Positions 30,585 to 57,202 of a DNA stretch of 64,000 nt are shown one piece after another (position 1 is the stretch's first letter; each line of letters opens with the position of its first letter). The stretch lies in assembly GCA_965223415.1 (NCBI GenBank), contig OZ245002.1, positions 5,472,001-5,536,000 of the forward strand. The letters run 5' to 3'. Below the pieces are notes generated by a model, which was given only the letters and a program-made list of their open reading frames with translations, was not told the origin of the DNA and made no database searches. This DNA comes from Myxococcota bacterium. GTDB lineage: Bacteria; Myxococcota_A; UBA9160; UBA6930. Made by a program: the position numbers and the translations under genes.

Positions 30585-31070
30585 TCAGCCGCCCATCGGG
30601 TCGAGGGTGACGACGTCGTCGCGGAGCAGGTTCTCGGAGAGGACCGACTCCTCCTCGTGGAGCATGTCGGTCTCGATGTCCGCGATGAGGAAGAGGGTGC
30701 GCCGGGCCAGGCGGCCGATGTCCGCGTTGGGCTTGCTCAGCTCCTGGACGTAGGAGAGGAGCAGCTTCCGCTGGTCGCGGTGCTCGTCGAGGACGAGCTG
30801 GGCCCGCTCCTCCCCCCAGGCGTCCACGGTGCGCAGCAGCGGCACCATGAAGCGCTCCTCCATGTCCAGATGGCGGAAGAACCGATCGGCGAAACGCTCC
30901 GCCTCGCGCTTGAGCTCGACGCTCCGGGTCCGATCCCCGGTCCGCGCCCACTCGGCGGCGGCACGGAGATCGCGGAGCAGGAGGCGGAGGCGGGCGTGGT
31001 CCTCGAGCACCATGCGGCGGATTTCGCTCGGGCGGAGCTCCCCTGGCCGCTCGGTACCTTCGGTCGTCAT
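30585..31070 (-). CDS. Hemerythrin/HHE-domain protein
   Basis: EDH, HLDMEE, DEH, HEEE; ATG overlaps upstream stop. Confidence 0.75.
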   Translation of the reverse strand: MTTEGTERPGELRPSEIRRMVLEDHARLRLLLRDLRAAAEWARTGDRTRSVELKREAERFADRFFRHLDMEERFMVPLLRTVDAWGEERAQLVLDEHRDQRKLLLSYVQELSKPNADIGRLARRTLFLIADIETDMLHEEESVLSENLLRDDVVTLDPMGG

Positions 31071-32497: not shown

Positions 32498-32532
32498 CCG
32501 CCTTCCACCTCCAACCCGGACGCTACGGTGGG

Positions 32533-32548
32533 AGCAAGACGCATGCCG
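32533..32548 (-). promoter_or_regulatory. Sigma-54 promoter CGGCATG-CGTC-TTGCT
   Basis: Upstream of WS/DGAT-like gene and its GGAGGTGG SD. Confidence 0.7.
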
Positions 32549-34438: not shown

Positions 34439-34454
34439 TGGCACGGATCCTGCG
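34439..34454 (+). promoter_or_regulatory. Sigma-54 promoter TGGCACG-GATC-CTGCG
   Basis: Upstream of USP gene 34469. Confidence 0.7.
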
Positions 34455-34468
34455 AAACCCGGAGAGAG

Positions 34469-34915
34469 ATGAAGCTCGACCACATCCTCGTGCCCTTCGA
34501 CTTCTCGGCCTGTGCCGGGCGCGCCTTCGACCAGGCCCTCGAACTGGCGGGCCGCTACGGAGGCCGCCTCACCCTGCTCCATGCCTTCCAGCTGAACGAG
34601 CAGGTCTATCCCTACTCGGCAATCCTGACCCACGAGCGGGTGGAGGACGCACGGGAGGCGGCCACCCGGGCCCTGGCCGAGTGGCGCGACCGGGCGGACG
34701 CAGGCGGGGTCGAGGTGGACGTCCGCGTGGCCCCCGGCATGCCCTCGGAGACGATCGTCGCCGTCGCCCAGGAGATCGCCGCGGACCTGATCGTGATGGG
34801 CACCCATGGCCGCACGGGCCTGGGCCACGTGATGCTCGGCAGCGTCGCCGAGCGCACCCTGCGCGCTGCGCCCTGCCCGGTTCTCACGGTGCGGCCGCCG
34901 GACGAGGCCTCGTGA
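34469..34915 (+). CDS. Universal stress protein
   Basis: ILVPFDFS, DLIVMGTHGRTG..LGSVAE..APCPVLTV. Confidence 0.92.
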   Translation: MKLDHILVPFDFSACAGRAFDQALELAGRYGGRLTLLHAFQLNEQVYPYSAILTHERVEDAREAATRALAEWRDRADAGGVEVDVRVAPGMPSETIVAVAQEIAADLIVMGTHGRTGLGHVMLGSVAERTLRAAPCPVLTVRPPDEAS

Positions 34916-35873: not shown

Positions 35874-35890
35874 TGGGGCGCTCCACCCCA
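35874..35890. promoter_or_regulatory. Candidate activator site TGGGG-N7-CCCCA
   Basis: Perfect inverted repeat 38 nt upstream of the sigma-54 motif. Confidence 0.65.

Positions 35891-38019: not shown

Positions 38020-38023
<4 letters not shown>
37136..38023 (-). CDS. Tandem-domain universal stress protein
   Basis: Two USP repeats (LVATDFS..GTHG..LGSVAE; VGVDFS..GSRG..LGSVAE). Confidence 0.92.
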
Positions 38024-39435
<1,412 letters not shown>

Positions 39436-39500: not shown

Positions 39501-39517
39501 TGGGGCAAAATTCCCCA
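39501..39517. promoter_or_regulatory. Candidate activator site TGGGG-CAAAATT-CCCCA
   Basis: Perfect inverted repeat 37 nt upstream of the sigma-54 motif. Confidence 0.7.
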
Positions 39518-39547: not shown

Positions 39548-40789
39548 TCACCCGACGACGGGCAGAAGAAGGCGGAAGTCGGTGCCCCGGGCGTCGGAGC
39601 GAGCCACCTCGATGAGCCCGCCGTGCTCCGTCACGATGCCGTGGGCCACCGCCAGCCCCAGGCCGTGGCCTTCGCCCGCTTCCTTGGTGGTGACGAAGGG
39701 ATCGAAGACCTGCTCCGGGTCTTCCATGCCGATACCGGGGCCGGTGTCCTCGACGTGCACCTCCACCTCGCCCTCGTCCGTCTGGGCCAGGGAGACGCGG
39801 ATCTCGCCGCCATCGGGCATGGCGTCGGCGGCGTTCAGCAGCAGGTTCAGCAGCACCTGCTGCAGCCGCTCGGGATCGCCGGAGACGCTGGCCACGTCGG
39901 CCAGCCTGAGGACCGGTTCGATTCCGCGGCGCGCGAACTTCTCGTTGAGGAAGGCCACCGTGTTCTCGATCAGCGGCCGCAGGTCAACGGGGATGCTGCG
40001 GGAGCGCGACGGACGCGCCATCCCGAGCAGGCTCTCGATGATGCGGGAGATGCGTCCGATCTGCTGCTGGATCGTCTCGAGCCGCCAGCCCGCGTCCTCC
40101 CCCCGCACCGAGGACTCGAGCAGCTTGGCGTGGCCCCGGATCACGCCCATGGGGGTGCCGATCTCGTGGGCGAGCCCCGCGACGAGCACGCCGATCGATG
40201 CCAACCGCTCGGCGGCCCGGGCGCGCTCGGTCGTCTGCCTCAGCTCGACTCCGGTGCTCTCCAGGTCCCGGGCCAGCTGGCGGCCCGCGTTCGAGAGCTC
40301 TTCGTTCAGGTGCTGCAGGTCCCGCTCGCGGCGCGCGATGTAGCGATCCATGGCGATGTGCATGTCGAACATCATCAGCTTCTGGAGGGCGACCAGGGTC
40401 CGCTCACCCCGCACCAGGTCGCCGTGGGTGTGCTCCCAGACGAGCGGCGTGAGCAGCCCGAAGTAGAGGCTGTAGGCGCCGATGTACCAGCGCGGATCGA
40501 GGCCGATGCGCTCGTGGGCCTCGCCGATGCGCCGCCGCTCCCGGACGTAGGCCTCGTCGATCTCGGGCCCGGCCAGGCTCATCAGGTAGCGGCGCTGCTC
40601 ATCCAGCAACCGCTTCGTCACCTCGGGCTCTCGCAGGTGCCGCTGCGTGTCCGGGAAGGAGAGCAAGTGGCGGTAGAAGGCCGAGACGAGCCGCTCCGCG
40701 TGCTGCTCGAGGATCGGCTTCAGGTCGCGCAGCGCCTCCCGATCGGCCTCGCCGTACTCGAAGAACGCGATCTCGTCGGAGACGTCCAT
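39548..40789 (-). CDS. Globin-coupled sensor histidine kinase
   Basis: Sensor globin (FYRHLLSF, IGEAHERIGL), H-box AHEIGTP, NLLLNA, DTGPG, GHGLGL; no TM segment. Confidence 0.9.
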   Translation of the reverse strand: MDVSDEIAFFEYGEADREALRDLKPILEQHAERLVSAFYRHLLSFPDTQRHLREPEVTKRLLDEQRRYLMSLAGPEIDEAYVRERRRIGEAHERIGLDPRWYIGAYSLYFGLLTPLVWEHTHGDLVRGERTLVALQKLMMFDMHIAMDRYIARRERDLQHLNEELSNAGRQLARDLESTGVELRQTTERARAAERLASIGVLVAGLAHEIGTPMGVIRGHAKLLESSVRGEDAGWRLETIQQQIGRISRIIESLLGMARPSRSRSIPVDLRPLIENTVAFLNEKFARRGIEPVLRLADVASVSGDPERLQQVLLNLLLNAADAMPDGGEIRVSLAQTDEGEVEVHVEDTGPGIGMEDPEQVFDPFVTTKEAGEGHGLGLAVAHGIVTEHGGLIEVARSDARGTDFRLLLPVVG

Positions 40790-43308: not shown

Positions 43309-43782
43309 ATGCACTCGGCGCAGAACGTGATGACGAATCCGGTGGTGGCGGTGAGCCCCGCAATGAGCCTGGCCGACGCCCATCGCCTGTTCGTCGAAGA
43401 GGGCATCCACGGGGCGCCGGTGCTCGATGACGATGGATCGATCGTCGGCGTCGTCACCAGCAGCGATCTGCTGCGCGCCGTCCACGACGAGCACGACAGC
43501 GTCACCCGCTCCAGCGACTACCTCCGGGACCTGCTGGAGTTCTCCGCGCCGGATTGGGCCGGAGAGACCTCCGACTTCCAGGACCGGCTGGGGGAGCGCT
43601 CGGTCGAGGAAGTGATGACCCCCACGGCCGTGACGGTGCGCCCGGACGCCCCCATCTCCGAGGTGGCCCGCGCTCTGCGGGAGAACCGGATCCACCGGGT
43701 CTGGGTGGAAGAAGACGGTAAGCTTCGCGGCGTGATCTCAACCTTCGATCTGCTCCCCATCCTGGAGGAGCTGGCCGGATGA
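43309..43782 (+). CDS. CBS-domain protein
   Basis: VMTNP, GAPVLD, GVVTSSD, GVISTFD; GAGGAGG SD. Confidence 0.88.
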   Translation: MHSAQNVMTNPVVAVSPAMSLADAHRLFVEEGIHGAPVLDDDGSIVGVVTSSDLLRAVHDEHDSVTRSSDYLRDLLEFSAPDWAGETSDFQDRLGERSVEEVMTPTAVTVRPDAPISEVARALRENRIHRVWVEEDGKLRGVISTFDLLPILEELAG

Positions 43783-44945
43783 ACGCCCTCCGCCGCTGGG
43801 GCCACGTGCCCCAGCTCGGGATCGTCTTCGGGGCGCTTCTCCTCGGCTGCGGGCATCGTCCGGAGCCGGTTCCGGAGCCGCCGGAGACCCGCGCGACCAT
43901 GGCCGAGATCGTCGCGGCCCTCCAGGTGGCCCTGCCCCTCAGCCTGAGCGAGGAGGCCTTCCACGCGCCGGAGAACCGCGTGGCCCTGGACGAGGCCTTG
44001 GCCCAGCTCAGCCGCAGCGCCGGGGCGCTCGAAGCTCACGGCCAGGGCCGCGACGCGGGCTTCGCCCACATGAGCCACGCCCTCTCCCGCGACGCGGCAG
44101 AGATCGAGTGGCGCCTCCGCCAGGGCCGCTCGGAGGAGGCGCGCTTCCTGCTGGGCGAGCTGGTCGGCGATTGCGTGACCTGCCACTCGCGCCTGCCCGC
44201 CGAGGGCTCGGACCTGGGCCGCTCCCTCTACGAATCCGTCGACGCGAACGCCCTGCCCCGCGCCGAGCGCGTGCGTCTCGAAATCGCCACCCGCCAGTTC
44301 GACCTGGCGCTCACCACCCTCGAGGCGTTGATCGCCGACGAGACGGTGAGCCCGTCCCAGCTCGACCTGGGCGGCTTCCTCTCGGACTACCTACGCGTGA
44401 GCATCCGCGTCCGGGCGGATCTGGCCCGACCGCGCACGACCCTCGACGCGTGGCGTCAGCGCGCCGAGCTGCCGGCCTACCTCGATCACATCACGGCCAG
44501 CTGGGTCGACGCCCTCGGGAGCCTGCGCGTCGACGCGGAGCCCGGTGCCGAGCTGGCAGAGGCGCGCACCGTGGCCGACCAGGCGACGGCCCTGCGGCGC
44601 TTCCCCGCGGATCGCGGCACCCTCGTCCACGACCTGGTGGTGTCGAGCCTGCTCCACCGGGCGCTGGCGCGGCAGACCCTCGCGCCGGACGACGCCTCCG
44701 AGGCGTACTTCCTGCTCGGCCTCGCGGAGCTGCGGGTCGCCCACTCCTACTGGCTCGCGGCGCCGGAGGCCTACCTGGAAGCGGCGATCCGCTCCGCGCC
44801 GGGCTCGCGCTTCGCGCGGGAGGCCTACCTGGTGCTCGAAGAGGAGACGATCGCCGGCTACACGGGCTCGGGAGGCACCCAGCTTCCGGCGGCCGTGGCG
44901 AGCTGGCTGGAAGAGCTGCGGGGGCTGGCGCTCACGGAGCCCTAG
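43779..44945 (+). CDS. Helical lipoprotein with one c-type haem motif
   Basis: Lipobox LLGC, CVTCH, helical/TPR-like remainder. Confidence 0.7.
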   Translation: MNALRRWGHVPQLGIVFGALLLGCGHRPEPVPEPPETRATMAEIVAALQVALPLSLSEEAFHAPENRVALDEALAQLSRSAGALEAHGQGRDAGFAHMSHALSRDAAEIEWRLRQGRSEEARFLLGELVGDCVTCHSRLPAEGSDLGRSLYESVDANALPRAERVRLEIATRQFDLALTTLEALIADETVSPSQLDLGGFLSDYLRVSIRVRADLARPRTTLDAWRQRAELPAYLDHITASWVDALGSLRVDAEPGAELAEARTVADQATALRRFPADRGTLVHDLVVSSLLHRALARQTLAPDDASEAYFLLGLAELRVAHSYWLAAPEAYLEAAIRSAPGSRFAREAYLVLEEETIAGYTGSGGTQLPAAVASWLEELRGLALTEP

Positions 44946-45071: not shown

Positions 45072-46427
45072 CTACCCGAGACCGTGCTCCTCGAGCACGG
45101 TCGCGAGCACCGCCTCGAGCCCCGGCGTGTCGAGGTCCTGGTAGCCGTAACGAGCCCGCACGACGGGAAGATCCAGCTCGAGGAGGGACGCCAGGTCGAC
45201 CGGCGTTCCGGCCACCACCACCTCGGCCCCGGAAGCCTCGATGGTCTGCCGGAGCGCCGCGCGCTGGGCCGCGTCGTAGCCCATGGCGGGGAGGATCGGC
45301 CCGAGGTGCGGAAACGCCGCGAACACCTCGGCGATGGGCGGCGCGGCCTTCGCGCGCGGATCGACGATCTCGGCGGCTCCCGCGCCGGTGGCGGCGACGT
45401 AGCCGGCACCGTGGGGCATGCCGCCGTGGGTGGTCGTCGGTCCATCCTCGACCACGAGGACCCGCCGTCCGCGAACCTGCTCCGGCGCGTCGAGGACCAC
45501 CGGCGAGGCGGCACGCAGCACGGGCACATCCGGCCGCAGGCGACGAACGCCGGCCACGGCCTGCTCGCCGCCCGCCTCGCCAGCGCTGTCCACTTTGTTG
45601 ACCACCACCACGTCGGCCATGCGCAGCACCGTTTCGCCCGGGTGGTGCGTATCGATCTGATCCGGCCGCAGGGCATCGACGACCACGACGTGGAGGTCCG
45701 GCCGCAGGAACGGGAAGTCGTTGTTCCCGCCGTCCCAGACGATCACCTGGGCCTCCTTCTCGGCCGCCGCCAGGATCGCGGCGTAGTCGACGCCGGCGAA
45801 TACGACGGCGCCGGCCTCCAGGTACGCCTCGTACTCCTCCCGCTCCTCGGCGGTGCAGTCGTGGGCTCGCAGGTCCGCGCGCTCGGCGAAGCGCTGCACC
45901 CGCTGGCGGGCGAGATCGCCGTAGGGCATGGGATGGCGCATCGCGACGGCGCGCAGCCCCCGCGCGTGCAGATGAGCGACGATCCAACGCGCGGTCTGCG
46001 ACTTGCCACAGCCGGTGCGAACGGCGGACACGGCGATCACGGGCAGCATGGACGTCAGCATCGTGCGGCGCGGCCCGAGCAGCTCGAAGTCCGCGCCGGC
46101 GGCCAGGGCCCGGGAGGCGAGATGCATGACGTGCTCGTGGGAGACGTCGCTGTAGGCGAACACCACGTCGTGGACGTCCCGCTCGGCGCAGATCTCCTCG
46201 AGGTCTGCCTCCGGGAGGATCGGAATCCCCTGTGGATGGTGCGGGCCGGACAGCTCCCGCGGATAGCGGCGGCCGTCGATCCCGGGGATCTGGGCGGCGG
46301 TGAAGGCCACCACCTCGTGGCGAGGGTCTTCCCGGTAGACCGTGTTGAAGCAGTGGAAGTCACGGCCGGCCGCGCCCAGGATCAGGACGCGGCGTCGCGG
46401 CGGCCCTCCTTCCGTCGGCGATACCAT
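45072..46427 (-). CDS. COG2403-type P-loop ligase (cDPG synthetase/arginine synthetase-like)
   Basis: ILGAAGRDFH, AVRTGCGKS, RHPMPYG, EEREEYE, WDGGNND, VEDGPT. Confidence 0.8.
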   Translation of the reverse strand: MVSPTEGGPPRRRVLILGAAGRDFHCFNTVYREDPRHEVVAFTAAQIPGIDGRRYPRELSGPHHPQGIPILPEADLEEICAERDVHDVVFAYSDVSHEHVMHLASRALAAGADFELLGPRRTMLTSMLPVIAVSAVRTGCGKSQTARWIVAHLHARGLRAVAMRHPMPYGDLARQRVQRFAERADLRAHDCTAEEREEYEAYLEAGAVVFAGVDYAAILAAAEKEAQVIVWDGGNNDFPFLRPDLHVVVVDALRPDQIDTHHPGETVLRMADVVVVNKVDSAGEAGGEQAVAGVRRLRPDVPVLRAASPVVLDAPEQVRGRRVLVVEDGPTTTHGGMPHGAGYVAATGAGAAEIVDPRAKAAPPIAEVFAAFPHLGPILPAMGYDAAQRAALRQTIEASGAEVVVAGTPVDLASLLELDLPVVRARYGYQDLDTPGLEAVLATVLEEHGLG

Positions 46428-47504: not shown

Positions 47505-47541
47505 TGGGGCGGAACGTCCCAGGGTGGGGCACAAGGAAACC
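47505..47541. promoter_or_regulatory. Tandem candidate activator sites TGGGG-N7-TCCCA and TGGGG half site
   Basis: 47505-47521 and 47525-47541, ending 39 nt before the sigma-54 motif. Confidence 0.6.
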
Positions 47542-47580: not shown

Positions 47581-47596
47581 CGGCATGCCGGTTGCT
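47581..47596 (+). promoter_or_regulatory. Sigma-54 promoter CGGCATG-CCGG-TTGCT
   Basis: Upstream of the HPF-like gene and di-iron operon. Confidence 0.7.
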
Positions 47597-47608
47597 TCCC
47601 ATGCGGTC

Positions 47609-47950
47609 ATGGAGATCCATTGGCGAAACCCCGGTGAGCTGGACGAGGCGGAACGCGACCAGGCGGAGGAGCGGCTCGCGCGCCTCGCCGACGGACACAA
47701 CGACCTGATCGACGTGTGGGTCGACGTGGAGAGCGAGAGCGGCCACCACCGCAACGGGCCGCGCCGGGTCGCCATCCGCTGCCAGGCTCGGCGGGCCGAG
47801 CTGGTCGCCCATGGCGAGGCGGACGAGCCCGCCACCGCCCTCCACCACGCCCTCGAGACCTTCTCCCGCGAAGTCCACCGTCTCCGCGACAAGCGCCGCG
47901 AGAGACGTGCGCGCACCGCCCCACGCATTCCCGAGGAGGAAGCACCGTGA
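47609..47950 (+). CDS. HPF/RaiA-like ribosome hibernation protein
   Basis: MEIHWRN, AEERLARL, GHHRNG, basic C-terminal helix; size fits. Confidence 0.65.
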   Translation: MEIHWRNPGELDEAERDQAEERLARLADGHNDLIDVWVDVESESGHHRNGPRRVAIRCQARRAELVAHGEADEPATALHHALETFSREVHRLRDKRRERRARTAPRIPEEEAP

Positions 47951-48831
47951 CCGATTTCCTGAAGGGCTACGACATCCAGTACTGGCTCGAATCCGCTCCC
48001 CAGGGCTACCTGCAGGACACGGAGTACGGCCACCGGGTGGGCGAGAAGGAGCCGGACCTGCTGATGGAGGAGGCGACCCTCCGCGAGCAGGCCATCGACA
48101 CCACGGTGCAGCTCGTCGTCGGCGAGCGCTGCGCGCTCGCGGCGTCCTCGGGCCTGATCAACGCCGCCCCGGACGAGGCCAGCAAGCGCTTCCTCGCCAC
48201 CCAGACCCTCGACGAGGCCCGCCATGTCGAGATCTTCACCCATCGGCTCTTCGACCTCGGCGTGAAGCCGAAGGAGCTCGAGGACGTGATCTCCCAGCGG
48301 GCCAACCCGCATCTGGTGAGCTTCGCCGAGCTGCTGCTGGACAAAGTCGACAAGAAGGACTTCGTCGCCGGCGTGGTGGGGCAGAACGTGGTGCTCGAGG
48401 GCATGGCGTTCCGCGTCTTCGAGATGCTCCACGAGGGCAACGCGAAGACCAACCCCAAGTTCGCCCACATCCTCTCGGGCACGATCGCCGACGAGCGTCG
48501 CCACGTAGGCTTCGGCGAGAACCGCATCGGCTCGCTCATCCGCGAGCATCCCGATCGCAAGGGCGACGTGGAGCAGCTGCAGAAGGAGATGTCCTACCAC
48601 ATGCTCGCCACCTTCGGCGCCCAGTTCCGCAAGGGCCCGAGCCCGGCCGAGATGCAGCAGATCATGGAGGACCGCGGCGTGCAGCGAGACGAGGCCGAGT
48701 GGCAGGGCGTGAAGCTCGGTCAGGCCTCTCCGGAAGAGCTCGAAGAGGTGCTCGGCGACACGATCCTGAAGGAGTTCAAGCTCCGGCTCGAGCGGATCGG
48801 CGTCGAGTACCAGACGCCGATCCGGCCCTAG
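47947..48831 (+). CDS. Ferritin-like di-iron protein A
   Basis: GE..DEARH..VLE..DERRH. Confidence 0.8.
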   Translation: MTDFLKGYDIQYWLESAPQGYLQDTEYGHRVGEKEPDLLMEEATLREQAIDTTVQLVVGERCALAASSGLINAAPDEASKRFLATQTLDEARHVEIFTHRLFDLGVKPKELEDVISQRANPHLVSFAELLLDKVDKKDFVAGVVGQNVVLEGMAFRVFEMLHEGNAKTNPKFAHILSGTIADERRHVGFGENRIGSLIREHPDRKGDVEQLQKEMSYHMLATFGAQFRKGPSPAEMQQIMEDRGVQRDEAEWQGVKLGQASPEELEEVLGDTILKEFKLRLERIGVEYQTPIRP

Positions 48832-48832
48832 C

Positions 48833-49618
48833 ATGGCAACCCGCGAGCCGGGGGCAGGCGAGCTGCACGATCTGCCCCCGGACCTCTTCCACGAGCACGT
48901 CCACTCCTTCGAGCACTGGCTGGGCTCGGTCCACGGCTACCTCGAGGACCGTCCCTGGGGCCATCGGGAGGATCTCGCCACCGGGGAGCTCTCCGCCGCC
49001 GAGCGCGACCGACTGGTGTCGACCCTCTGCAACTACTGCGTCGGGGAGACCGCCGCCCTCGAGGGCGCCGGCGGCCTGATCCGCGTGGCCCCGAACCGCC
49101 CCCTCAAGGTGTTCGTCGCCACCCAGGCCGCCGACGAGGCGCGGCACCTCGAGGTGCTGATCCACCGCCTGCGCGAGCTCGGCGTGGACGATCCCGAGGC
49201 GGAGATCACCCGCCGCGCCCACCCGGGCCTGCTGCGCTTCAAGCAAGAGCTCCTCGGCCTGGTCGGCGACGGCGACTGGCTGCGCGCGCTGTTCGCCCAG
49301 AACGTCATTCTCGAGGCGATGGAGTTCACCGTCTTCCGCTACCACGCTCGCGAGGCCGATCCGGTGACGAAGGACCTGCTGGTCGGCATCATCAAGGACG
49401 AGCGCCGTCACATCGGCTTCGGCGAGAACGAGCTGGGCCGCCAGCTCAAGCAGGACGCCGATGCGGCCGCCCGCCTGGCCGCGGTGCGGGAGCGCCTCGA
49501 CCCCCTCGTCCTCCAGAGCTTCGAGCAGGCCCTCGAAGAGCTGGCCGTGCCGGCCGGCGAGCGCCACGAGCTGGGCCGCGACTACCTCGCCGCCGTCGGG
49601 AGGCTCGGGATCGTATGA
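48833..49618 (+). CDS. Ferritin-like di-iron protein B (paralogue of A)
   Basis: GE..DEARH..ILE..DERRH. Confidence 0.8.
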   Translation: MATREPGAGELHDLPPDLFHEHVHSFEHWLGSVHGYLEDRPWGHREDLATGELSAAERDRLVSTLCNYCVGETAALEGAGGLIRVAPNRPLKVFVATQAADEARHLEVLIHRLRELGVDDPEAEITRRAHPGLLRFKQELLGLVGDGDWLRALFAQNVILEAMEFTVFRYHAREADPVTKDLLVGIIKDERRHIGFGENELGRQLKQDADAAARLAAVRERLDPLVLQSFEQALEELAVPAGERHELGRDYLAAVGRLGIV

Positions 49619-49881
49619 GTCTCGACGAACCCCGCCAGCGGTTCGACCTCGACGATCGGGGCTTCGACGAGGTGCCCCGCAAGTACCGCAAGTACTACCG
49701 GCGCTGGGAGGGGCCCGACGACGAGCTCGGCCCCAACGAGATCCTGTGCCCGGTCTGCAAGATCGTGGTCCGATCCAATCGCGAGCTGCGCCCGGGCGAT
49801 CGGATGTACTGTATGGCGTGTCTGACGAGGCTGCGGATCACCGAGGCCGAGGGCCGATTGGAGGCCGAGGTCGAGTACTGA
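49615..49881 (+). CDS. Small CxxC..CxxC metal-ribbon protein
   Basis: CPVC and CMAC; coupled to both neighbours. Confidence 0.75.
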   Translation: MSLDEPRQRFDLDDRGFDEVPRKYRKYYRRWEGPDDELGPNEILCPVCKIVVRSNRELRPGDRMYCMACLTRLRITEAEGRLEAEVEY

Positions 49882-50330
49882 TGCGCACCTCCTGGACATG
49901 GGAGCCCCGAGACACCATGGACCAGCCCGGTGCGCACAAGCGGATGAGCCTCGAAGCCCGGCGCATCTCCTCCCAGCACCGCAAGCTCAACATGCTCCAC
50001 CGCGTGGTGGTCGACGCCATCAACCGCGCCCGCCCCGCCGAGTGCATCACCGCCTTCAAGCGCTTCCGGGAGGCCCTCGACTCCCACTTCTCCCTGGAGG
50101 ACGAACTCTACTTCCCGGCCCTCCACGGCCTGCGCCGCGACCTGTCCGCCACCCTCGAACGGCTGAGCCAGGAGCACGCCGCCCTGCGAAGCCGCCTGGC
50201 GGAGCTGGAGGCGGCGTTCGTCGAGGCCCGGCTGGACGAGTGCGCGCGGCTCCTCGATACCGTGGGCGCGGCGATCGCCGACCACGAGAGCCGGGAAGAG
50301 CAGGTGCTGCGGGCGTTCCGCGATTCCTAG
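49881..50330 (+). CDS. Hemerythrin/HHE-domain protein (start could be 49917)
   Basis: SQH, HFSLEDELYFP, QEH, HESREE. Confidence 0.78.
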   Translation: MRTSWTWEPRDTMDQPGAHKRMSLEARRISSQHRKLNMLHRVVVDAINRARPAECITAFKRFREALDSHFSLEDELYFPALHGLRRDLSATLERLSQEHAALRSRLAELEAAFVEARLDECARLLDTVGAAIADHESREEQVLRAFRDS

Positions 50331-50523
50331 TCCCGGCCGGTGGGTCGAGATCCGAAAACCCCTCGCTCTCGCGCTCCGGGCAGGCGTCGTCGTCGTAGAC
50401 GTGCCGGAACGAAGGCCCCTCCCAGTCCTCGAACTGGCCCTCCCGGGCCGCCCGGAGCACCAGGGCCAGGAGCAGGGCCGCGAGCAGCAGCGAGACCGGC
50501 AGGGTCACGGCGAGGAAGCTCAT
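50056..50523 (-). CDS. ccoS: cbb3 oxidase maturation protein CcoS (homology ends ~50390; long read-through tail)
   Basis: TM helix then GQFEDWEGP..DDD; ATG overlaps ccoI stop. Confidence 0.75.
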   Translation of the reverse strand: MSFLAVTLPVSLLLAALLLALVLRAAREGQFEDWEGPSFRHVYDDDACPERESEGFSDLDPPAGTRNRGTPAAPALPGSRGRRSPRPRYRGAARTRPAGPRRTPPPAPPGGFAGRRAPGSAVRGWRTGRGAGRGGPGSRVRPPGRSGSRGPPGSA

Positions 50524-52700
50524 GCGTCGGGGCTCCAGCGCAGCAGCCGGATCGCGTTGCCGGTCACCACGAGAGACGACGCGCTCATGGCGATCGCTGC
50601 GTGGAGGGGCTCGAGCCAGCCGGCCACCGCGAGCGGAACGGCCACCAGGTTGTAGAGCAGCGCGAAGCCCAGGTTCTCGCGGATGCGGGCCACGCAGGCC
50701 CGGGCCAGGCCCAGGGTCGTCGGGAGCGCCGTGAGACGAGGCGAGCGGATCACCAGATCGGCCGCGTGGAGGGTGACGTCGGAGCCGCGGTGCATGGCGA
50801 GGCCGACGTCGGCGGCTCCGAGGGCGGCGGCGTCGTTGATGCCGTCGCCGGCCACGAGCACACGGCGGCCGGCCCGTCGCAGGGTGCGCACCTGGGCGAC
50901 CTTCTCCTCCGGCGACTGCTCGGCGTGGACCACCGGCACGCCCGCAGCGGCGGCGGCCAGACGGGCGGCCGTAGGGTGGTCGCCGGTCACGAGGGAGGCG
51001 GCGACGCCCTGGCGCTGCAACGCCTCCACGGCCAGGCCGGCGTCCTCCCGCGGCGGATCCCAGAGAGCGAGCAGGCCCAGAACCTCCTCGTCCCGTGAGA
51101 CGGCGACGAGGCTCAGGCCCGCCGCGGCGGCCTTGTCCGCGGCCTCGCGGAGCGGCGCGGGCAGCGCGGCCCCCGCCTCCTCCAGCCAGCGCGGAGAGCC
51201 CGCGCGCAAGAGCGCATCTCCCGCCCGCGCCTCGACGCCAGCACCGGGCCAGGTGCGCCGCTCCGTGAGCTCGGGCAGCACGGCGTCGGCGGCGGCCTCG
51301 CGCAGGGCCTCGGCCACGGGATGGGTCGAGGCGCCTTCGACGGCGGCGGCCCAGAGCCGGAGCTCCTGCTCGCTCACGCCGGGCGCGGTGTGCAGCTCGC
51401 GCACGGCGAAGCGCCCCTCGGTGAGGGTGCCGGTCTTGTCCAGGGCCACCGCGTCGACCCCGGCGCAGCGCTCCAGCGCCTCGCCGCTCTTCACCAGGAT
51501 GCCGAGGGACGCGGCGCGGCCGACGGCGGCGGTGATCGCCGCGGGCGTGGCGAGACCGAGAGCGCAGGGACAGGCCACGATCAGCACGGCGGCGGTGGCG
51601 AGCGCCACGTCCAGGGGCGCGGCCCCCTTCCACAGCCAGAAGCCGGCGGTGGCGGTGGCGATGGCCAGCACCGCCGGCGCGAAGACCGAGGCCACCCGGT
51701 CCGCCAGCCGTTGGATGCGGGGCCGCTCGGCCTGGGCGCGCTCGAGGAGCGCCGCCATCTTGGCGAGGGTGCCCTCGGCGGGCCGAGCCACGACCTCGAT
51801 CTCCGCTTCCACCAGCAGGTTGCGGCTGCCGCCGATCAGGAGCTCGCCGGGCTCCCGCAGGACCGGGCGCGCCTCGCCCGTGAACGGCGCCTCGTCCACC
51901 TCGGTGGCGCCGGAGCACAGGCGCCCGTCGGCGGGCACGGCCTGGCCGGCGGGGACGAGGACGCGGTCGCCTACCGCGAGACTCGCGGCGTCCACCTCGA
52001 CGGGGCCCTCGGGCGTGCACAGGAGCGCCTTCGGCGGCGCCAGGGCGGCCAGGCGATCGACCGCCGAGCGTGCCTTGCCCCGCGCGCCGCGCTCGAGGGT
52101 GCGGCCGAGGAGCACCAGGAAGACGATCATGGCCGCCGAGTCCATGTAGAGGTGCGACGTGCCGGCGAGAGTACCGGCCACGCCGACCCCGAAGGCGGTC
52201 GTGATGCCGGCGACGATGGGCACGTCGACGGAGAGCTCGCCGCAGCGCAGTCCGCTCCAGGCCCCGCGCCAGAAGGGTGCCGCACACCAGGTGATCGCCG
52301 GCACCGTGAGCACCAGCGTGAGCCAGCGCAGGACCTGGCGCACGGCCGGATCCATGCCCTGGTAGCTGCCGGAGTAGAGAGCGACCGAGAGCCACATCAC
52401 GTTGCCGGCCAGGAAGGCCGCCACCAGCAGGCGCACGAGGGCGGCGCGCTGGCTGCCGGCGGCCGGCCGATCCAGCACCTCCGGGTCGAAGGGGGTCGCG
52501 TCGTAGCCGAGCTCGCGCACCACCCCGACGAGGGCGTCGGCGGAGCTGCGCTCCGGGTCGATGCGCACCAGGGCCCGGTGGCTGGTGTAGTTCACGGCGG
52601 CCTCGTCCACGCCGTCGGCAGCGCGCAGGGCCCGCTCCACCCGGTTCACACAGCCGGCGCAGTGGAGCCCGTCCAGGAAGAGGCCGACGTCCGCGGTCAT
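50520..52700 (-). CDS. ccoI: Cu-type P1B ATPase CcoI/FixI
   Basis: HCAGC HMA domain, TGE, CPCALG, DKTGT, GDGIND; cco context. Confidence 0.9.
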   Translation of the reverse strand: MTADVGLFLDGLHCAGCVNRVERALRAADGVDEAAVNYTSHRALVRIDPERSSADALVGVVRELGYDATPFDPEVLDRPAAGSQRAALVRLLVAAFLAGNVMWLSVALYSGSYQGMDPAVRQVLRWLTLVLTVPAITWCAAPFWRGAWSGLRCGELSVDVPIVAGITTAFGVGVAGTLAGTSHLYMDSAAMIVFLVLLGRTLERGARGKARSAVDRLAALAPPKALLCTPEGPVEVDAASLAVGDRVLVPAGQAVPADGRLCSGATEVDEAPFTGEARPVLREPGELLIGGSRNLLVEAEIEVVARPAEGTLAKMAALLERAQAERPRIQRLADRVASVFAPAVLAIATATAGFWLWKGAAPLDVALATAAVLIVACPCALGLATPAAITAAVGRAASLGILVKSGEALERCAGVDAVALDKTGTLTEGRFAVRELHTAPGVSEQELRLWAAAVEGASTHPVAEALREAAADAVLPELTERRTWPGAGVEARAGDALLRAGSPRWLEEAGAALPAPLREAADKAAAAGLSLVAVSRDEEVLGLLALWDPPREDAGLAVEALQRQGVAASLVTGDHPTAARLAAAAAGVPVVHAEQSPEEKVAQVRTLRRAGRRVLVAGDGINDAAALGAADVGLAMHRGSDVTLHAADLVIRSPRLTALPTTLGLARACVARIRENLGFALLYNLVAVPLAVAGWLEPLHAAIAMSASSLVVTGNAIRLLRWSPDA

Positions 52701-52897
52701 CCCTGCGCCTCCACCTCCCGCGGGTGGAAGCCGCTGCGTCCGCCGTCGGCTTCGAAGGCCTCGTCCACGATGACCGGGTCCGGCGTGCGGTAGGCAACGA
52801 CGGCGAAGCCGATCGACACCAGCATCATCAGGGCGAGCATCGAGGCGAGGATCCAGGGCCAGGGCTCGGTGCGGCGCTCCGTCGGGTCAGCCTGCAT
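52697..52897 (-). CDS. Very short CcoH/FixH-like protein
   Basis: PWPW + TM helix + DPVI; lies between ccoG and ccoI. Confidence 0.55.
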   Translation of the reverse strand: MQADPTERRTEPWPWILASMLALMMLVSIGFAVVAYRTPDPVIVDEAFEADGGRSGFHPREVEAQG

Positions 52898-54203
52898 CGC
52901 GGATCTCCGGTGTGAGGAAGTGGGTCGGCCGCACGAGGGGGCGATCGCCCCCCTCGACCGGCTCGAGCACGAAGCGCAGCTCCTTGCGGGTTCCGTCGGG
53001 CTCCCAGCCGAGCGGCGCCATCACGAAGACGCGGGCCTCCACCGCGTCGGTCGGCCCGACGGGGATCGGGTTCTGGCCGGCGATCAGGGCGAAGTCGGTA
53101 CCCGTGGCCTCGACGCGGATCCGGTAGGCGTGCTCGACCCGATCGCGGTTCTCGAGGCGGAGGGTGAAGGCGTTGCCATAGCGCCCGTCCGCGGCGCGAC
53201 CGAACAGGGCCTGGCGGTTGTGCATGACCGTGAAGTCCATCGGCACGCGCACCATGAGCAGCGCGGCAAAGGCCACGCCGGCAGCGACGAGCATGCCGCC
53301 GTAGACGACCACCCGGGGCCGCAGGACCCGGGCCGGCCGGGTGCCCTCGAGGGCCGAGAGCGCGCGGTATCCGATCAGCTCGGGCTCCCGGCCAGTGCGG
53401 GCCATCACCCCGTTGCAGGCGTCGATGCACTGGGTGCAGGTGATGCATTCGAGCTGCAGGCCGTCGCGGATGTCGATCTCGGTGGGGCAGACCTGCACGC
53501 AGAGGCCGCAATCGACACAGTCGCCTGCGACGGTCCCGCGCTTGCCCCGCGGCTCGCCGCGGGCCCGGTCGTAGCTGATGACGAGGGTGTCGCGGTCGAA
53601 CAGCACGCCCTGGAAGCGGGCGTAGGGGCAGAGATAGCGACAGAAGGTCTGCTTCACGACGACGAAGTCGAGGTAGGAGAGGACGGCCATCACCACGAGG
53701 AAGCCGAAGGCGGCGCCGTAGGGGCCGCCGGACTGGAGGCGTTCCAGCAGCTGGTAGGGCGAGGCGAAGTAGGCCACGAGGTGGAAGCCGATCACGAGGG
53801 AGAGTCCCATCCACACGAGGTGGGTGAGCAGGATCCGCCAGGCCGCGACCCGCTCGGGCGGCCGCGGCCCCTTCCAGCCCTGGAGGAAGCGCGCCACCAC
53901 GGCGAAGACATCGGTGAAGACGGTCTGCGGGCAGGCCCAGCCGCACCAGACGCGCCCGAGGAGGGCCGTGAAGAAGAAGAGCGCCAGGGCCAGCGCTGCC
54001 AGGATCAGCCACAGGAAGTAGAGCTCCTGGGGCGCGATCACGAGGCCCAGCACGTGGAACTCGCGGGCCGGGATGTCGAGCTGCACCAGGGGCTCGCCGC
54101 CGATCCGGATCCACGGGATCCCGAACAGGACGGCGATGAGCGCCACGTCGGCCCAGGCGCGCAGCGTACGGAACCGGCCGCTCACCGCGCGAGCGGAGAG
54201 CAC
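52887..54203 (-). CDS. ccoG: cbb3 oxidase accessory protein CcoG/FixG
   Basis: GRVWCGWACPQTV, CRYLCPY, CVDCGLCVQVCP, CITCTQCIDAC. Confidence 0.93.
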   Translation of the reverse strand: MLSARAVSGRFRTLRAWADVALIAVLFGIPWIRIGGEPLVQLDIPAREFHVLGLVIAPQELYFLWLILAALALALFFFTALLGRVWCGWACPQTVFTDVFAVVARFLQGWKGPRPPERVAAWRILLTHLVWMGLSLVIGFHLVAYFASPYQLLERLQSGGPYGAAFGFLVVMAVLSYLDFVVVKQTFCRYLCPYARFQGVLFDRDTLVISYDRARGEPRGKRGTVAGDCVDCGLCVQVCPTEIDIRDGLQLECITCTQCIDACNGVMARTGREPELIGYRALSALEGTRPARVLRPRVVVYGGMLVAAGVAFAALLMVRVPMDFTVMHNRQALFGRAADGRYGNAFTLRLENRDRVEHAYRIRVEATGTDFALIAGQNPIPVGPTDAVEARVFVMAPLGWEPDGTRKELRFVLEPVEGGDRPLVRPTHFLTPEIRDAG

Positions 54204-54206
54204 GCC

Positions 54207-54782
54207 CTACCCCCCTGCGCCCTGCTGGGCCTGGGCCGCGTCGTGCTCCGGCGAGCCCACGCCGGGCTCGTCGGTGCGCTCGAGGGTCTCCATGTAGGCG
54301 AGCACCTTCCAGATCTTCTCGTTGCCGAGCTGGGGGCCCCAGGGCGGCATGCCGAGGGGCCGGCCGGCGTTCACCGTCTCGAAGAGCGCGGCGTCGCTGT
54401 CGCCGTACTTCCAGTAGGGATCGATCACGCTCGGACCCACGAGCCCCCGCCCGTCGGGCAGGTGGCAGGCGACGCAGATCTGGGTCCACACCTCCTGGCC
54501 CTGGGCGATCGCGGCGCTGTCGCCGCGGTACGGATTCGTGTCCGGGAGGGCCTCGCGCACGGAGGCGAAGGCGGCTTCCGCCTCGGCGACCTCGGCCTGC
54601 CAGCGCTCCGCCTGGGAGTGCGGCGCCATGGCGCCGTAGAAGAAGATGTAGCCGAGCCCGTAGAGGATCAGCCCATAGAAGCCCAGGTTGAACCAGGCCG
54701 GGATCGCGTTGTCCTCTTCGCCGATGCCGTCCCGCTCGGGCTCGTCCACCAGCGGCCGCTCGGGAATCTGCTCCGAGCTCAT
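54207..54782 (-). CDS. ccoP: cbb3 oxidase subunit III, short monohaem form
   Basis: DGIGEEDNAIPAW, single CVACH, GMPPWG. Confidence 0.85.
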   Translation of the reverse strand: MSSEQIPERPLVDEPERDGIGEEDNAIPAWFNLGFYGLILYGLGYIFFYGAMAPHSQAERWQAEVAEAEAAFASVREALPDTNPYRGDSAAIAQGQEVWTQICVACHLPDGRGLVGPSVIDPYWKYGDSDAALFETVNAGRPLGMPPWGPQLGNEKIWKVLAYMETLERTDEPGVGSPEHDAAQAQQGAGG

Positions 54783-54931
54783 TCTCCGTCCTCCTCGAGC
54801 ATGCGGTGGGCAGGCGCTTCGAAGCGCGCCCTCTGGCCGGGCCGGAAGAGCCACACGCCGATACCGACCAGAACCAGGGCCAGGAACGCCAGACGGCCCA
54901 GCTTGTAGAGGGCGACCCACTCCTCGCTCAT
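54779..54931 (-). CDS. ccoQ: cbb3 oxidase subunit CcoQ
   Basis: 50 aa, single TM, RARFEAPA..ED; between ccoO and ccoP. Confidence 0.8.
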   Translation of the reverse strand: MSEEWVALYKLGRLAFLALVLVGIGVWLFRPGQRARFEAPAHRMLEEDGE

Positions 54932-55611
54932 CGGGCCGCTCCCTTCACCGAGGTCCCCAGGGACTGCAGGTAGGCGATCAGCGCCACGGTCTCGCTGCGG
55001 GCCTGGGCTTCGCTCAGCTCGATGCGATCGCGCCGGAGCTCCGCTGCGATGGCGTCGGCCTGAGCCAGGGCGTCCCGCCCCGCGTTCGCCACCTCGGCGT
55101 CCTCGTAGGGCGCGCCCAGCATGCGGAGCACCTCCAGCTTGCGAGGGAGCGTCGAGGTATCGATCGGTCTCGACGAGAGGAAGGAGAAGCTCGGCATGTT
55201 CGAGCGCGGCTCGATCTTCTGCGGGTCCTCGAAGTGCAGCCAGTGCCAGGAGTGTGGGTAGCGCCCGCCGACCCGCGCCAGGTCCGGCCCCGTGCGGCGG
55301 GAGCCGAACAGGAAGGGCCGGTCGTAGACCGACTCGCCGGCCAGGGAGTACGGCCCGTAGCGGTCGGTCTCGGTCTTGAAGGGCCGCACCTGCTGGCTGT
55401 GGCAGGTGTTGCAGCCCTCGCGCACGTAGATGTCCCGGCCCTCCTGCTCGAGGGCGGTGTAGGGCCGGTGGCCCTCGATCGTCTCCACCGTGCCCTGGAG
55501 GTAGAAGGGAGGGATCAGCAGGACGAGGCCGCCGACCACGATGCACAGCAGGGTGAGCCCGGTCAGGGACAGCCACTTCCGCTCCAGGGGGCGATGCCAC
55601 TCGTACGCCAT
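54928..55611 (-). CDS. ccoO: cbb3 oxidase subunit II
   Basis: GRDIYVREGCNTCHSQQVRP, GSRRTGPDLAR, SNMP. Confidence 0.95.
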   Translation of the reverse strand: MAYEWHRPLERKWLSLTGLTLLCIVVGGLVLLIPPFYLQGTVETIEGHRPYTALEQEGRDIYVREGCNTCHSQQVRPFKTETDRYGPYSLAGESVYDRPFLFGSRRTGPDLARVGGRYPHSWHWLHFEDPQKIEPRSNMPSFSFLSSRPIDTSTLPRKLEVLRMLGAPYEDAEVANAGRDALAQADAIAAELRRDRIELSEAQARSETVALIAYLQSLGTSVKGAAR

Positions 55612-55612
55612 C

Positions 55613-57070
55613 TCAGCGCCCTCCCGCCACGGCGGCCGCGGCGCCGGCCGGGGGCGCGTCGGCCTCCGGGACCTCCACCGAGCCCTGCTGGATCGTCTTC
55701 CAGACGTTGTAGACCATCACCAGGGCGCCTCCGAGGAAGAAGACGCCGCCCACCACGCGGATCACGTCGTAGATACGAATGGCAGAGACGGTCTCGATGA
55801 AGGTGTAGGTGAGGCTCCCGTCCGGGTTGACCGCCCGCCACATGAGGCCCTGGGTCACGCCGGACACCCACATCGGCGTCACGTAGAGCACGATGCCGAG
55901 GGTGGCGACCCAGAAGTGCACCTCGGCCAGGCGCTGGCTGTAGAGCTTCGTGTGCCACAGCCGCGGCACCATGTAGTAGAGGGTGGCGAAGCAGGTGAGC
56001 GCCACCCAGCCGAGGGCGCCGGAGTGGACGTGGCCGATCGTCCAGTTGGTGAAGTGGGAGAGCGAGTTCACCGAGCGGAGCGACATCATCGGCCCCTCGA
56101 AGGTGCTCATCCCGTAGAAGGTCAGCCCCACCGCGAACATCTTGAGCAGCGGATCCGTGCGCACCTTGTGCCAGGCGCCGCGGAGGGTGAGCAGCCCGTT
56201 CAGCATCCCGCCCCAGGAGGGGAAGATCAGCATGATCGAGAAGGCGGCACCGAAGGTCTGTGCCCAATCCGGCAGCGGCGAGTAGATCAGGTGATGCGGC
56301 CCGGCCCAGATGTAGATGAAGATCAGCGACCAGAAGTGCAGGATCGAGAGCCGGTGGGAGAAGATCGGCCGCCCCGCCTGCTTCGGCAGGAAGTAGTACA
56401 TGAGGCCCAGGATCGGCGTGGTGAGCAGGAAGCCCACCGCGTTGTGGCCGTACCACCACTGGATGTTCGCATCGTAGACGCCGGAGTAGGCCGAGTAGGA
56501 CTTCATCCACGAGACCGGCCAGGCCATGCTGTTCGTGATGTGCAGCATGGCGATGGTCAGCACCGTCGCGACCCAGAACCAGATGGCCGCGTACATCGCC
56601 TTCTCCCGCCGCTTGGCGAGAGTGCCGAAGACATTGATCGCGTAGACCACCCACACGACGGCGATGGCGATGTCGATGGGCCACTCGAGCTCGGCGTACT
56701 CCTTGGCGGTGGAGTAGCCCCCGAGCAGACTCACGGCGGCGGCGACGATGATGCCGTTCCACAGCCACAGGTTGATCCGCGAGAGCGTGTCGCTGAACAT
56801 CCGCACGCGGCACAGGCGCTGGAGCCCGTAGTAGGTGCCCGCAAAGACCACGCCCAGCGTGAAGCCGAAGATCACCGCGTTCGTATGGACCGGGCGCACG
56901 CGCCCGAAATGCAGGTACGGCCCCCAGTTCCATTCCGGCCAGGCCAGCTGGATCGCAGCCAGCAGTCCCACCAGCATGCCCACCACACCCCACAGCAGCG
57001 CTGACAGGGAAAACCCCCGCACCACCGCCATGTCGTAGAGGACGGGCTCGGCGTTCGTTCGTGTGCTCAC
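55613..57070 (-). CDS. ccoN: cbb3 oxidase subunit I
   Basis: RPVHTN, KEYAELEW, QWWYGHNAVGF, GPHH, WTIGHVH; GTG start with GGAAGG SD. Confidence 0.95.
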   Translation of the reverse strand: MSTRTNAEPVLYDMAVVRGFSLSALLWGVVGMLVGLLAAIQLAWPEWNWGPYLHFGRVRPVHTNAVIFGFTLGVVFAGTYYGLQRLCRVRMFSDTLSRINLWLWNGIIVAAAVSLLGGYSTAKEYAELEWPIDIAIAVVWVVYAINVFGTLAKRREKAMYAAIWFWVATVLTIAMLHITNSMAWPVSWMKSYSAYSGVYDANIQWWYGHNAVGFLLTTPILGLMYYFLPKQAGRPIFSHRLSILHFWSLIFIYIWAGPHHLIYSPLPDWAQTFGAAFSIMLIFPSWGGMLNGLLTLRGAWHKVRTDPLLKMFAVGLTFYGMSTFEGPMMSLRSVNSLSHFTNWTIGHVHSGALGWVALTCFATLYYMVPRLWHTKLYSQRLAEVHFWVATLGIVLYVTPMWVSGVTQGLMWRAVNPDGSLTYTFIETVSAIRIYDVIRVVGGVFFLGGALVMVYNVWKTIQQGSVEVPEADAPPAGAAAAVAGGR

Positions 57071-57099
57071 GCAAAGGCCCCCTTCCGCGCCGGACGTCG

Positions 57100-57115
57100 T
57101 GCAGGAGAGATGCCA
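57100..57115 (-). promoter_or_regulatory. Sigma-54 promoter TGGCATC-TCTC-CTGCA
   Basis: Upstream of ccoN. Confidence 0.65.
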
Positions 57116-57185
57116 ACGCAGGGCGGCATGAAACGGGCTCTCCGCGGGAAGGCGGCCCAATGCCTCCCCAACCCTGGCCTCACAT

Positions 57186-57202
57186 TGGGGCTCGGCGCCG
57201 CA
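57186..57202. promoter_or_regulatory. Candidate activator site TGGGG-N7-CCGCA
   Basis: One mismatch to the palindrome; a half site ending CCCCA lies at 57154-57170. Confidence 0.55.

Follow-up and report, generated by a model that had tools for sequence, protein, structure and literature searches.

This study concerns an operon in a 64,000-nucleotide stretch of contig OZ245002.1 of a Myxococcota bacterium (assembly GCA_965223415.1), hereafter the window, to which all coordinates refer unless a locus is named. Five open reading frames (ORFs) with overlapping or abutting stops and starts lie on the plus strand at 47609-50330 and encode an HPF-like factor, two di-iron proteins (A and B), a four-cysteine ribbon protein and a hemerythrin. 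The five genes are translationally coupled. The ORF coordinates, the Pfam domains and the promoter motif bear out the original prediction of a five-gene array behind a sigma-54 motif. The features are:

47505-47521, no strand: palindrome TGGGGCGGAACGTCCCA, one mismatch to TGGGG-N7-CCCCA, 59 nt from the -24/-12 motif
47581-47595, plus strand: sigma-54 -24/-12 motif CGGCATGCCGGTTGC, 8 of 10 consensus positions, GG-N10-GC intact
47609-47950, plus strand: short HPF-like (HPF/YfiA-like) ribosome hibernation factor, 113 aa
47947-48831, plus strand: di-iron protein A, 294 aa, GTG start overlapping the HPF stop at 47948-47950
48833-49618, plus strand: di-iron protein B, 261 aa, starting one base past the stop of A
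49615-49881, plus strand: four-cysteine ribbon protein, 88 aa, ATGA overlap with B
49878-50330, plus strand: hemerythrin HHE-domain protein, 150 aa, ATGA overlap with the ribbon gene

Positions 47950-48831 were used in most analyses of A, one codon shorter than the full 294-residue protein. Over 193 aligned residues, A and B share 41% identity (E 1e-41). Ligand conservation was read from alignments of 31 A and 31 B sequences, in which E59, E89/H92, E150 and E182/H185 of A and E72, E102/H105, E161 and E190/H193 of B are each invariant (31 of 31). The expectation that both paralogues carry complete ligand sets was thereby confirmed, as was their common possession of the N-terminal W-L...G-Y-L...G-H motif and of QNV.LE and GFGEN. 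Both proteins show the E, ExxH, E, ExxH pattern of the ferritin-like di-iron carboxylate superfamily, and the AlphaFold model of A (pLDDT 86.9) is helical.

No Pfam match above cut-off was obtained for A, which also reached no curated NCBIfam cut-off; B lies marginally above three general di-iron Pfam cut-offs, those of MiaE_2 (32.1 against 25.2 bits), Phenol_Hydrox (30.6 against 24.4) and Ald_deCOase (29.7 against 28). For no specific enzyme family does the score of A or B attain the curated threshold. The best sequence match of both, and the best fold match of A, is the valanimycin azoxy synthase VlmB (PDB 8wvr, the same protein as 6d9f), a di-iron enzyme that, according to the available excerpt of its description, oxidizes an aliphatic hydrazine to an azoxy compound (PMC11705231). 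A matched the solved VlmB structures (6d9f/8wvr) at E 1.5e-15 as a single sequence and at E 3.5e-19 with the 31-sequence profile, and the 31-sequence profile of B matched VlmB at E 2.6e-11 and ADO at E 1.7e-9. A Foldseek search with the A model returned VlmB 8wvr first (TM 0.78, ~22% identity), ahead of R2lox, ADO and class Ic R2 in that order, and the clusters nearest to A in a protein atlas carry the VlmB name. A is thus similar to the VlmB family in sequence and fold, and B by sequence profile. VlmB shares with A and B the ferritin-like fold, the six-ligand pattern and an N-terminal W-L..G.L...G-H; since the motif of A and B aligns with VlmB's own N-terminus, it marks this branch of the superfamily. 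The profile and structure checks called for by the original prediction therefore uncovered no close characterized family, the best match being 22-23% identical.

Two further members of this branch resemble the pair. R2lox forms the second fold group for A (TM 0.64-0.68, ~15% identity) with weak sequence matches, and its cut-off (NF006200/NF006198, 194 bits) was not reached by A (27.7 bits) or B (19.1 bits). R2lox binds a fatty acid and is a single-gene homodimer with no known ribbon partner; its physiological function is not established, as is also the case for the trio of A, B and ribbon. ADO resembles A in fold, and its sequence matches B in the C-terminal half (E 1e-7 to 2e-9). The whole-protein score of B for ADO (TIGR04059) was 31.2 bits against a cut-off of 222.65, and in PF11266 the match of B (29.7 bits, cut-off 28) covers the C-terminal half only, with no match of A. 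ADO is a single small subunit paired with an acyl-ACP reductase, a pairing that was not seen beside the trio. The arrangement itself resembles that of heteromeric di-iron oxygenases (PaaA/PaaC/PaaB and the alpha/beta/gamma hydroxylases), in which two paralogous ferritin-like subunits and a small subunit also stand in a row. However, A and B have no PaaA/PaaC-type Pfam match at E≤1, both keep their ligands, and no reductase or coupling protein lies near the trio.

The third protein carries the motif CPVC...CM(A/P)C, and in an alignment of 31 sequences 28 columns, including all four cysteines, are invariant across phyla, a depth of conservation that fits a permanent subunit with a large permanent interface. 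Its model (pLDDT 90.6) is closest in fold to the zinc ribbon of LysW (Foldseek E 0.013); residues 40-88 superimpose on LysW with a VIA Z of 5.1 and a root-mean-square deviation of 1.8 over 48 residues, and 40 further conserved N-terminal residues lie outside the LysW-like domain. No rubredoxin Pfam match was found at E≤1 and no rubredoxin was among the 13 chains with Z≥2. The rubredoxin-like partner put forward originally is therefore not supported, and the absence of a match leaves the idea of an electron carrier possible but unsupported. LysW and ArgW consist of a zinc-ribbon domain and a flexible acidic C-terminal tail whose terminal Glu carries the substrate. At its C-terminus the ribbon protein instead forms a beta-strand bearing a near-invariant V-x-Y, and an acidic tail is absent, which sets it apart from these carriers. 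A role as a substrate like that of ribosomally synthesized and post-translationally modified peptides, or as a carrier, through the C-terminal V-x-Y was also considered but discarded, since 2 of 31 sequences have Phe in place of the Tyr, another residue follows this position in one sequence, and the C-terminus is an ordered strand in the model. A search for fused forms returned three slightly longer proteins (158-177 aa) and no informative fusion, which counts as weak evidence. In the prediction of an A+B+ribbon complex the ribbon as partner received a median score of 0.58, and the control with A replaced received 0.72, a pair of values that weighs on neither side of the question of binding. 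Among 401 genomes sampled from the window's phylum, the ribbon gene is present in 39, with a concentration in the window's own order and class. In two related loci, L072 (4995-6166) and L073 (4998-6086), the A frame runs on to 356-362 aa, possibly by fusion, frameshift or a missed stop, and in L072 the extended frame overlaps the ribbon frame.

Relatives of A are numerous, with 2258 found at E≤0.001. The best 120 of these, which include the window's own copy, are 73-100% identical, and none bears more than a generic or automatic label, if it is named at all; in some JGI records a relative of A is called 'phenylacetyl-CoA epoxidase catalytic subunit'. At least 486 stretches in one-genome-per-species contigs encode an A relative, and the best 80 of these form the set for all locus counts given here. 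They belong to Myxococcota, Binatia, Actinomycetota (Acidimicrobiia and others), Alphaproteobacteria and Gammaproteobacteria, together with some bins that carry other labels, and the identity of A across the set is 62-84%. A, B and ribbon are contiguous in 64 of the 80 loci; one locus (L056) has B and ribbon divergent from A, four have A and ribbon without B, four are cut by contig ends and seven have A alone. The ribbon gene thus adjoins A in 69 loci (the 64 contiguous trios, L056 and the four with A and ribbon only). The gene order A-B-ribbon is fixed, and B always occurs with A and ribbon where the locus has room (64/64). A homologue of the HPF gene was found in a single locus (L001), and a hemerythrin homologue within 5 kb of A in eight. 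The conserved unit is therefore the A-B-ribbon trio only, and the five-gene system is a local assembly in which HPF is a lineage-specific rider and hemerythrin a frequent but not obligatory companion. Of the five genes expected to be co-conserved, the three of the trio stood and the two outer ones did not; as an uncharacterized unit without a close characterized family match, the operon holds up for the trio.

The same genome contains a second copy of A (G000:C1:4680965-4681849, minus strand, locus L089), 70-71% identical by tblastn, with no B or ribbon gene within 7 kb and with a perfect sigma-54 motif, TGGCACCCGTCTTGC, 73 nt upstream (-73), as well as several further distant A paralogues. 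A quick tree of A, built without L072, L073 and L079 because of their odd lengths and without L062, where no A ORF was called, agrees broadly with taxonomy and places the solo copies in a few small clades of Myxococcota.

The two outer genes belong to known families. The HPF-like protein matches PF02482 (S30AE) with 28.6 bits (cut-off 23.7) and thus belongs with HPF/YfiA; since it misses the stricter TIGR00741 equivalog (26.4 against 40.9 bits), it is a distant member. An earlier start for this gene (ATG 47585, with GGGAGG upstream) was discarded because it falls within the conserved sigma-54 motif and because MEIHW/MEVHW is where both the Pfam alignment and L001 begin. The hemerythrin gene matches PF01814 with 55.7 bits (cut-off 25.3, E 9.3e-15), and a second hemerythrin is encoded in the window at 30585-31136 on the minus strand. 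The latter belongs to a second unit with a sigma-54 motif (30585-32548, minus strand; motif 8/10 at 32548), in which a WS/DGAT gene (31067-32500) is followed by the hemerythrin gene (30585-31136). In L039 the ribbon gene is directly followed by the same two families.

The locus L001, the closest relative, carries the promoter motif TGGCATGCCAGTTGC, likewise 13 bases away from the ATG of its HPF gene. We found similar motifs upstream of A in 44 of 79 loci, with about 0.09 expected per 350 nt; the background was 402 matches in 1.54 Mb on both strands. Within 200 nt upstream of A, a motif with at least 8 of 10 matches and with GG and GC fixed is present in 41 of 60 Myxococcota/Binatia-type loci, in none of 12 Actinomycetota loci and in one of seven Alpha-/Gammaproteobacteria loci. 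Since Actinomycetota, to our knowledge, lack sigma-54, their loci serve as a natural negative control, and the conservation in relatives exceeds chance. The genome encodes rpoN (sigma-54), and the window an activator. Judged by these comparisons, the sigma-54 motif of the operon is real and conserved, in agreement with the original prediction, and has what a sigma-54-dependent promoter would be expected to have. Transcription is predicted to start near 47607, which would give a leader of ~2 nt. Three sigma-54 motifs of the window end 13-15 nt before starts supported by homology, namely those of HPF (47595-47609, MEIHW), the activator (39449-39435, minus strand, MAKRPFQILVVDDD) and a USP (34453-34469, MKLDHILV). 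From this distance leaders of ~2-4 nt are predicted, and the three transcripts may be leaderless mRNAs from sigma-54 promoters.

The palindrome at 47505-47521 is a candidate enhancer (upstream activating sequence) to which a sigma-54 activator would bind, and L001 has a similar palindrome upstream of its sigma-54 motif. In the window, perfect copies of TGGGGC-N5-GCCCCA lie at 35874-35890, 39501-39517 and 43797-43813 and copies with one mismatch at 47505-47521 and 57186-57202; they are found 37-70 nt upstream of several motifs, including those of this operon, the activator and the cbb3 cluster described below. The copy at 43797-43813 has no clear promoter partner. Genome-wide, 186 palindromes were found at ≤1 mismatch, 28 of them paired with a sigma-54-like motif, and 18 of the 28 pairs are spaced 37-39, 57-62 or 67-70 nt, where a uniform distribution would give ~3. 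These steps look like helical phasing. Two regulatory genes lie ~8 kb upstream of the operon:

38020-39435, minus strand: NtrC-type response regulator and sigma-54 activator with receiver, AAA+ and HTH_8 domains (Pfam)
39548-40789, minus strand: protoglobin (globin-coupled) sensor histidine kinase with Protoglobin (120.6 bits), HisKA and HATPase_c domains

The activator gene has its own sigma-54 motif (39463-39449) and the perfect palindrome at 39501-39517. The activator is 63% identical to one beside the trio in L039, and homologues of it stand beside the trio in 7 of 80 loci. In 8 of 80 loci a homologous globin domain is encoded no more than 5 kb from A, in L014 by the nearest upstream gene, and 5 of the 13 other loci in which a palindrome precedes the motif also bear a protoglobin kinase. 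All eight motifs of the window that score at least 9/10 lie within 32.5-43.3 kb, where they precede USP, CBS, activator and kinase-like genes.

On the other side of the operon, the predicted convergence with cbb3 oxidase genes was verified by Pfam domains on the minus strand at 50520-57070:

50520-57202, minus strand: convergent cbb3 oxidase cluster, including its own motif and palindrome
50520-52700, minus strand: P-type ATPase
52887-54203, minus strand: FixG
54207-54773, minus strand: FixP
54928-55611, minus strand: FixO
55613-57070, minus strand: COX1/CcoN

A sigma-54-like motif (57115-57101) and a palindrome (57186-57202) belong to this cluster. A search between it and the hemerythrin gene revealed no intrinsic terminator. 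Between the CBS gene and the operon lie two further genes, one for a 388-aa protein with a CxxCH haem motif and no Pfam family (43779-44945, plus strand) and one for a 451-aa protein with only a weak CobW/HypB-type nucleotide-binding match (45072-46427, minus strand).

Across the genome, the genes behind palindrome-motif pairs comprise ccoNOP-fixG, SCO1 with PCuAC (copper chaperone), a HemN-amidohydrolase-WS/DGAT operon, CBS, USP, glutamate and alanine dehydrogenases, the activator itself and a distant ferritin-like paralogue. The last, a 379-aa protein (G000:C1:997117-998253, minus strand; L096, 1798-2934), has weak DUF455, AurF and R2 matches, all below cut-off; its gene is the second behind its palindrome and sigma-54 pair and is divergent from the HemN-amidohydrolase-WS/DGAT operon. 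By its predicted members, this gene set reads as a low-oxygen or dormancy regulon. We propose the protoglobin kinase as its gas sensor, and the position of the genes and sites suggests a chain from kinase to activator to palindrome. The predicted regulon resembles that of DosS/DosT-DosR in mycobacteria, where USP, CBS, WS/DGAT, HPF-like and PNPOx-like proteins (the last also a nearest neighbour at a trio locus) stand under a gas-sensing two-component system, and the operon shares its predicted sigma-54 dependence with the NorR response to NO. It differs from the DosR regulon in combining a protoglobin kinase with an NtrC-type sigma-54 activator in place of the LuxR-type DosR, and we know of no di-iron trio in the DosR or NorR regulons. 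In the freely accessible full-text literature (subscription papers excluded), no VlmB-like paralogue pair with a ribbon partner and no link between a globin kinase and sigma-54 was found, and the VlmB topic returned natural-product papers only.

The neighbour census covered the 110 nearest neighbours of 64 loci and gives counts without a background rate for gas, lipid, USP and CBS genes. About 20 of the 110 belong to gas- or hypoxia-type families, among them NnrS (2), NnrU (2), hemerythrin (3), NapC/NirT (2) and a protoglobin kinase (1); lipid or acyl-CoA families account for 19. Neighbours of the gas or hypoxia type, one or more per locus, are present in 27 of the 80 loci, and a WS/DGAT gene lies within 5 kb in nine, directly after the ribbon gene in L039 and L056. 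VlmB, R2lox and ADO all act on or bind aliphatic chains. Since the nearest characterized relatives handle such chains and lipid genes are among the neighbours, a lipid-type substrate is favoured, and we give O2-dependent oxidation of such a substrate under oxygen limitation roughly one chance in three, with scavenging of O2, H2O2 or NO as the next most likely role.

We would describe the trio as a heteromeric variety of ferritin-like di-iron oxidase with a ribbon component, a known superfamily in a new arrangement. The reading as a whole, a three-protein di-iron oxidase of the VlmB/R2lox type under sigma-54 and gas-sensor control with a lipid-type substrate, appears to us about as probable as its opposite. 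The haem-bearing protoglobin kinase would phosphorylate the NtrC-type activator, which would bind the TGGGGC-N5-GCCCCA palindrome and fire the operon promoter, and the trio would be co-transcribed from it with the HPF-like factor and hemerythrin. A and B would be paralogous subunits, each with a dinuclear and presumably di-iron site, and the ribbon a dedicated third subunit with a structural or electron-passing role; the gene order suggests that A and B form a heterodimer to which the ribbon binds. The enzyme would most likely use O2, which hemerythrin may buffer or deliver, to introduce a double bond or a hydroxyl group into an aliphatic, lipid-type substrate connected with the metabolism of storage lipids at times of scarce oxygen. 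Rather doubtful, though possible, is the most far-reaching form of this proposal, in which the trio would be a three-subunit di-iron oxidase and the signature effector of a low-oxygen programme run by a haem-globin sensor and sigma-54 in uncultured Myxococcota/Binatia, with orthologues in Acidimicrobiia and marine Proteobacteria, with both paralogues catalytic, and with lipid modification (or removal of O2 or NO) at trace oxygen supplied by hemerythrin.

Several observations weigh against such an enzyme or its proposed control. The ribbon resembles a zinc ribbon, which makes electron transfer a conjecture, and neither a reductase nor a ferredoxin recurs next to the trio among the neighbours at the 80 loci. 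Neighbourhoods beyond the trio vary, with no neighbour family in more than 12 of 80 loci. The four loci with A and ribbon but without B, together with the seven with A alone, indicate that B is not always needed. With 8 of 10 positions, the window's motif (47581-47595) is only a modest match; the palindromes of the window are not above chance (6, with 4.0 expected), and at other loci a palindrome precedes the motif in only 13 of 42 cases at ≤2 mismatches (5% in random windows). Finally, a globin-coupled kinase of Anaeromyxobacter is reportedly active with O2 bound; the regulon could therefore answer the arrival of oxygen and not its loss, and the response could run in either direction.

Among the alternatives, the trio may be a reductase that scavenges O2, H2O2 or NO, similar to a split rubrerythrin or flavorubredoxin, in which an Fe(Cys)4 ribbon would feed the di-iron sites and protect a microaerobic cell without any organic substrate. 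We regard this as unlikely, although the pairing of di-iron and CxxC...CxxC proteins recalls the two domains of rubrerythrin, sigma-54 control recalls NorR-norVW, and the gas-related neighbours, the predicted regulon common to the operon and the cbb3 oxidase, and the lack of conserved substrate-pathway genes beside the trio in the 80 loci all agree with it. However, with 260-294 aa A and B are similar to R2lox, ADO and VlmB and not to the 140-aa rubrerythrin bundles, and their scores for the Rubrerythrin Pfam family (13.8 and 16.3 bits) are under the cut-off of 22.8. The zinc-ribbon likeness and the absence of rubredoxin among the 13 chains also speak against it, albeit not decisively, as does the lack of a conserved reductase nearby.

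Less probable still is that A and B are independent homodimeric enzymes with related but separate activities, with the ribbon serving as a chaperone, in metal insertion or in regulation and not as a subunit. In the known heteromeric di-iron systems, such as PaaA/PaaC and multicomponent monooxygenases with alpha and beta subunits, only the first paralogue retains the ligands; the full sets of both A and B favour two homodimers, and the loci with A alone or with A and ribbon only, as well as the solo second copy in this genome, are consistent with them. On the other hand, B never occurs without A and ribbon where room exists, the gene order is fixed with coupled starts and stops, and the invariant columns of the ribbon across phyla fit a large permanent interface.

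The likeness to VlmB could also mean that the trio is an N-oxidizing natural-product enzyme, for example one that converts a hydrazine to an azoxy compound, which we consider very improbable even though no protein of solved structure is closer than VlmB in sequence or fold and the N-terminal motifs align. The identity to VlmB is only 22-23%, and 62-84% identity of A across phyla is unlike fast-moving secondary-metabolite genes. In the excerpted text of PMC11705231, VlmB belongs to a natural-product cluster with VlmO/VlmA and works without a paralogue or ribbon partner, whereas the trio has a paralogue pair and a ribbon, no biosynthetic neighbours and a variable context of stress and respiration genes. 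No natural-product biosynthetic enzyme set, including a VlmO/VlmA-type context, was present among the 110 nearest neighbours or the neighbour clusters, a comparison that included no sequence search for VlmO/VlmA. Equally improbable is that A and B are not oxidases and instead handle iron (ferroxidase or storage) or generate radicals as R2-like subunits for another partner: the E/ExxH/E/ExxH pattern is common to ferritins and R2 proteins and class Ic R2 of Chlamydia matches weakly (E 7e-4 to 0.015), but the ferritin and ribonucleotide reductase small-subunit scores are far under their cut-offs, no ribonucleotide reductase large subunit is among the 110 nearest neighbours, and size and fold best fit substrate-binding oxidases.

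The trio is widespread and strongly conserved across phyla, yet it belongs to no curated family, and the VlmB/R2lox/ADO branch to which A and B are closest carries out unusual chemistry, with azoxy formation, alkane formation and an unsettled role for R2lox. If the proposal of a heteromeric di-iron oxidase is correct, its pair of intact metal sites and its dedicated Cys4 subunit would represent a new architecture; in the most far-reaching form of the proposal, the trio would also provide the first physiological role for the VlmB/R2lox branch outside natural-product chemistry. The regulatory context points to a concrete condition, a shift in oxygen or another gas, under which the operon would function, and it sketches an entire predicted low-oxygen regulon for a lineage without cultured members among the matches listed.

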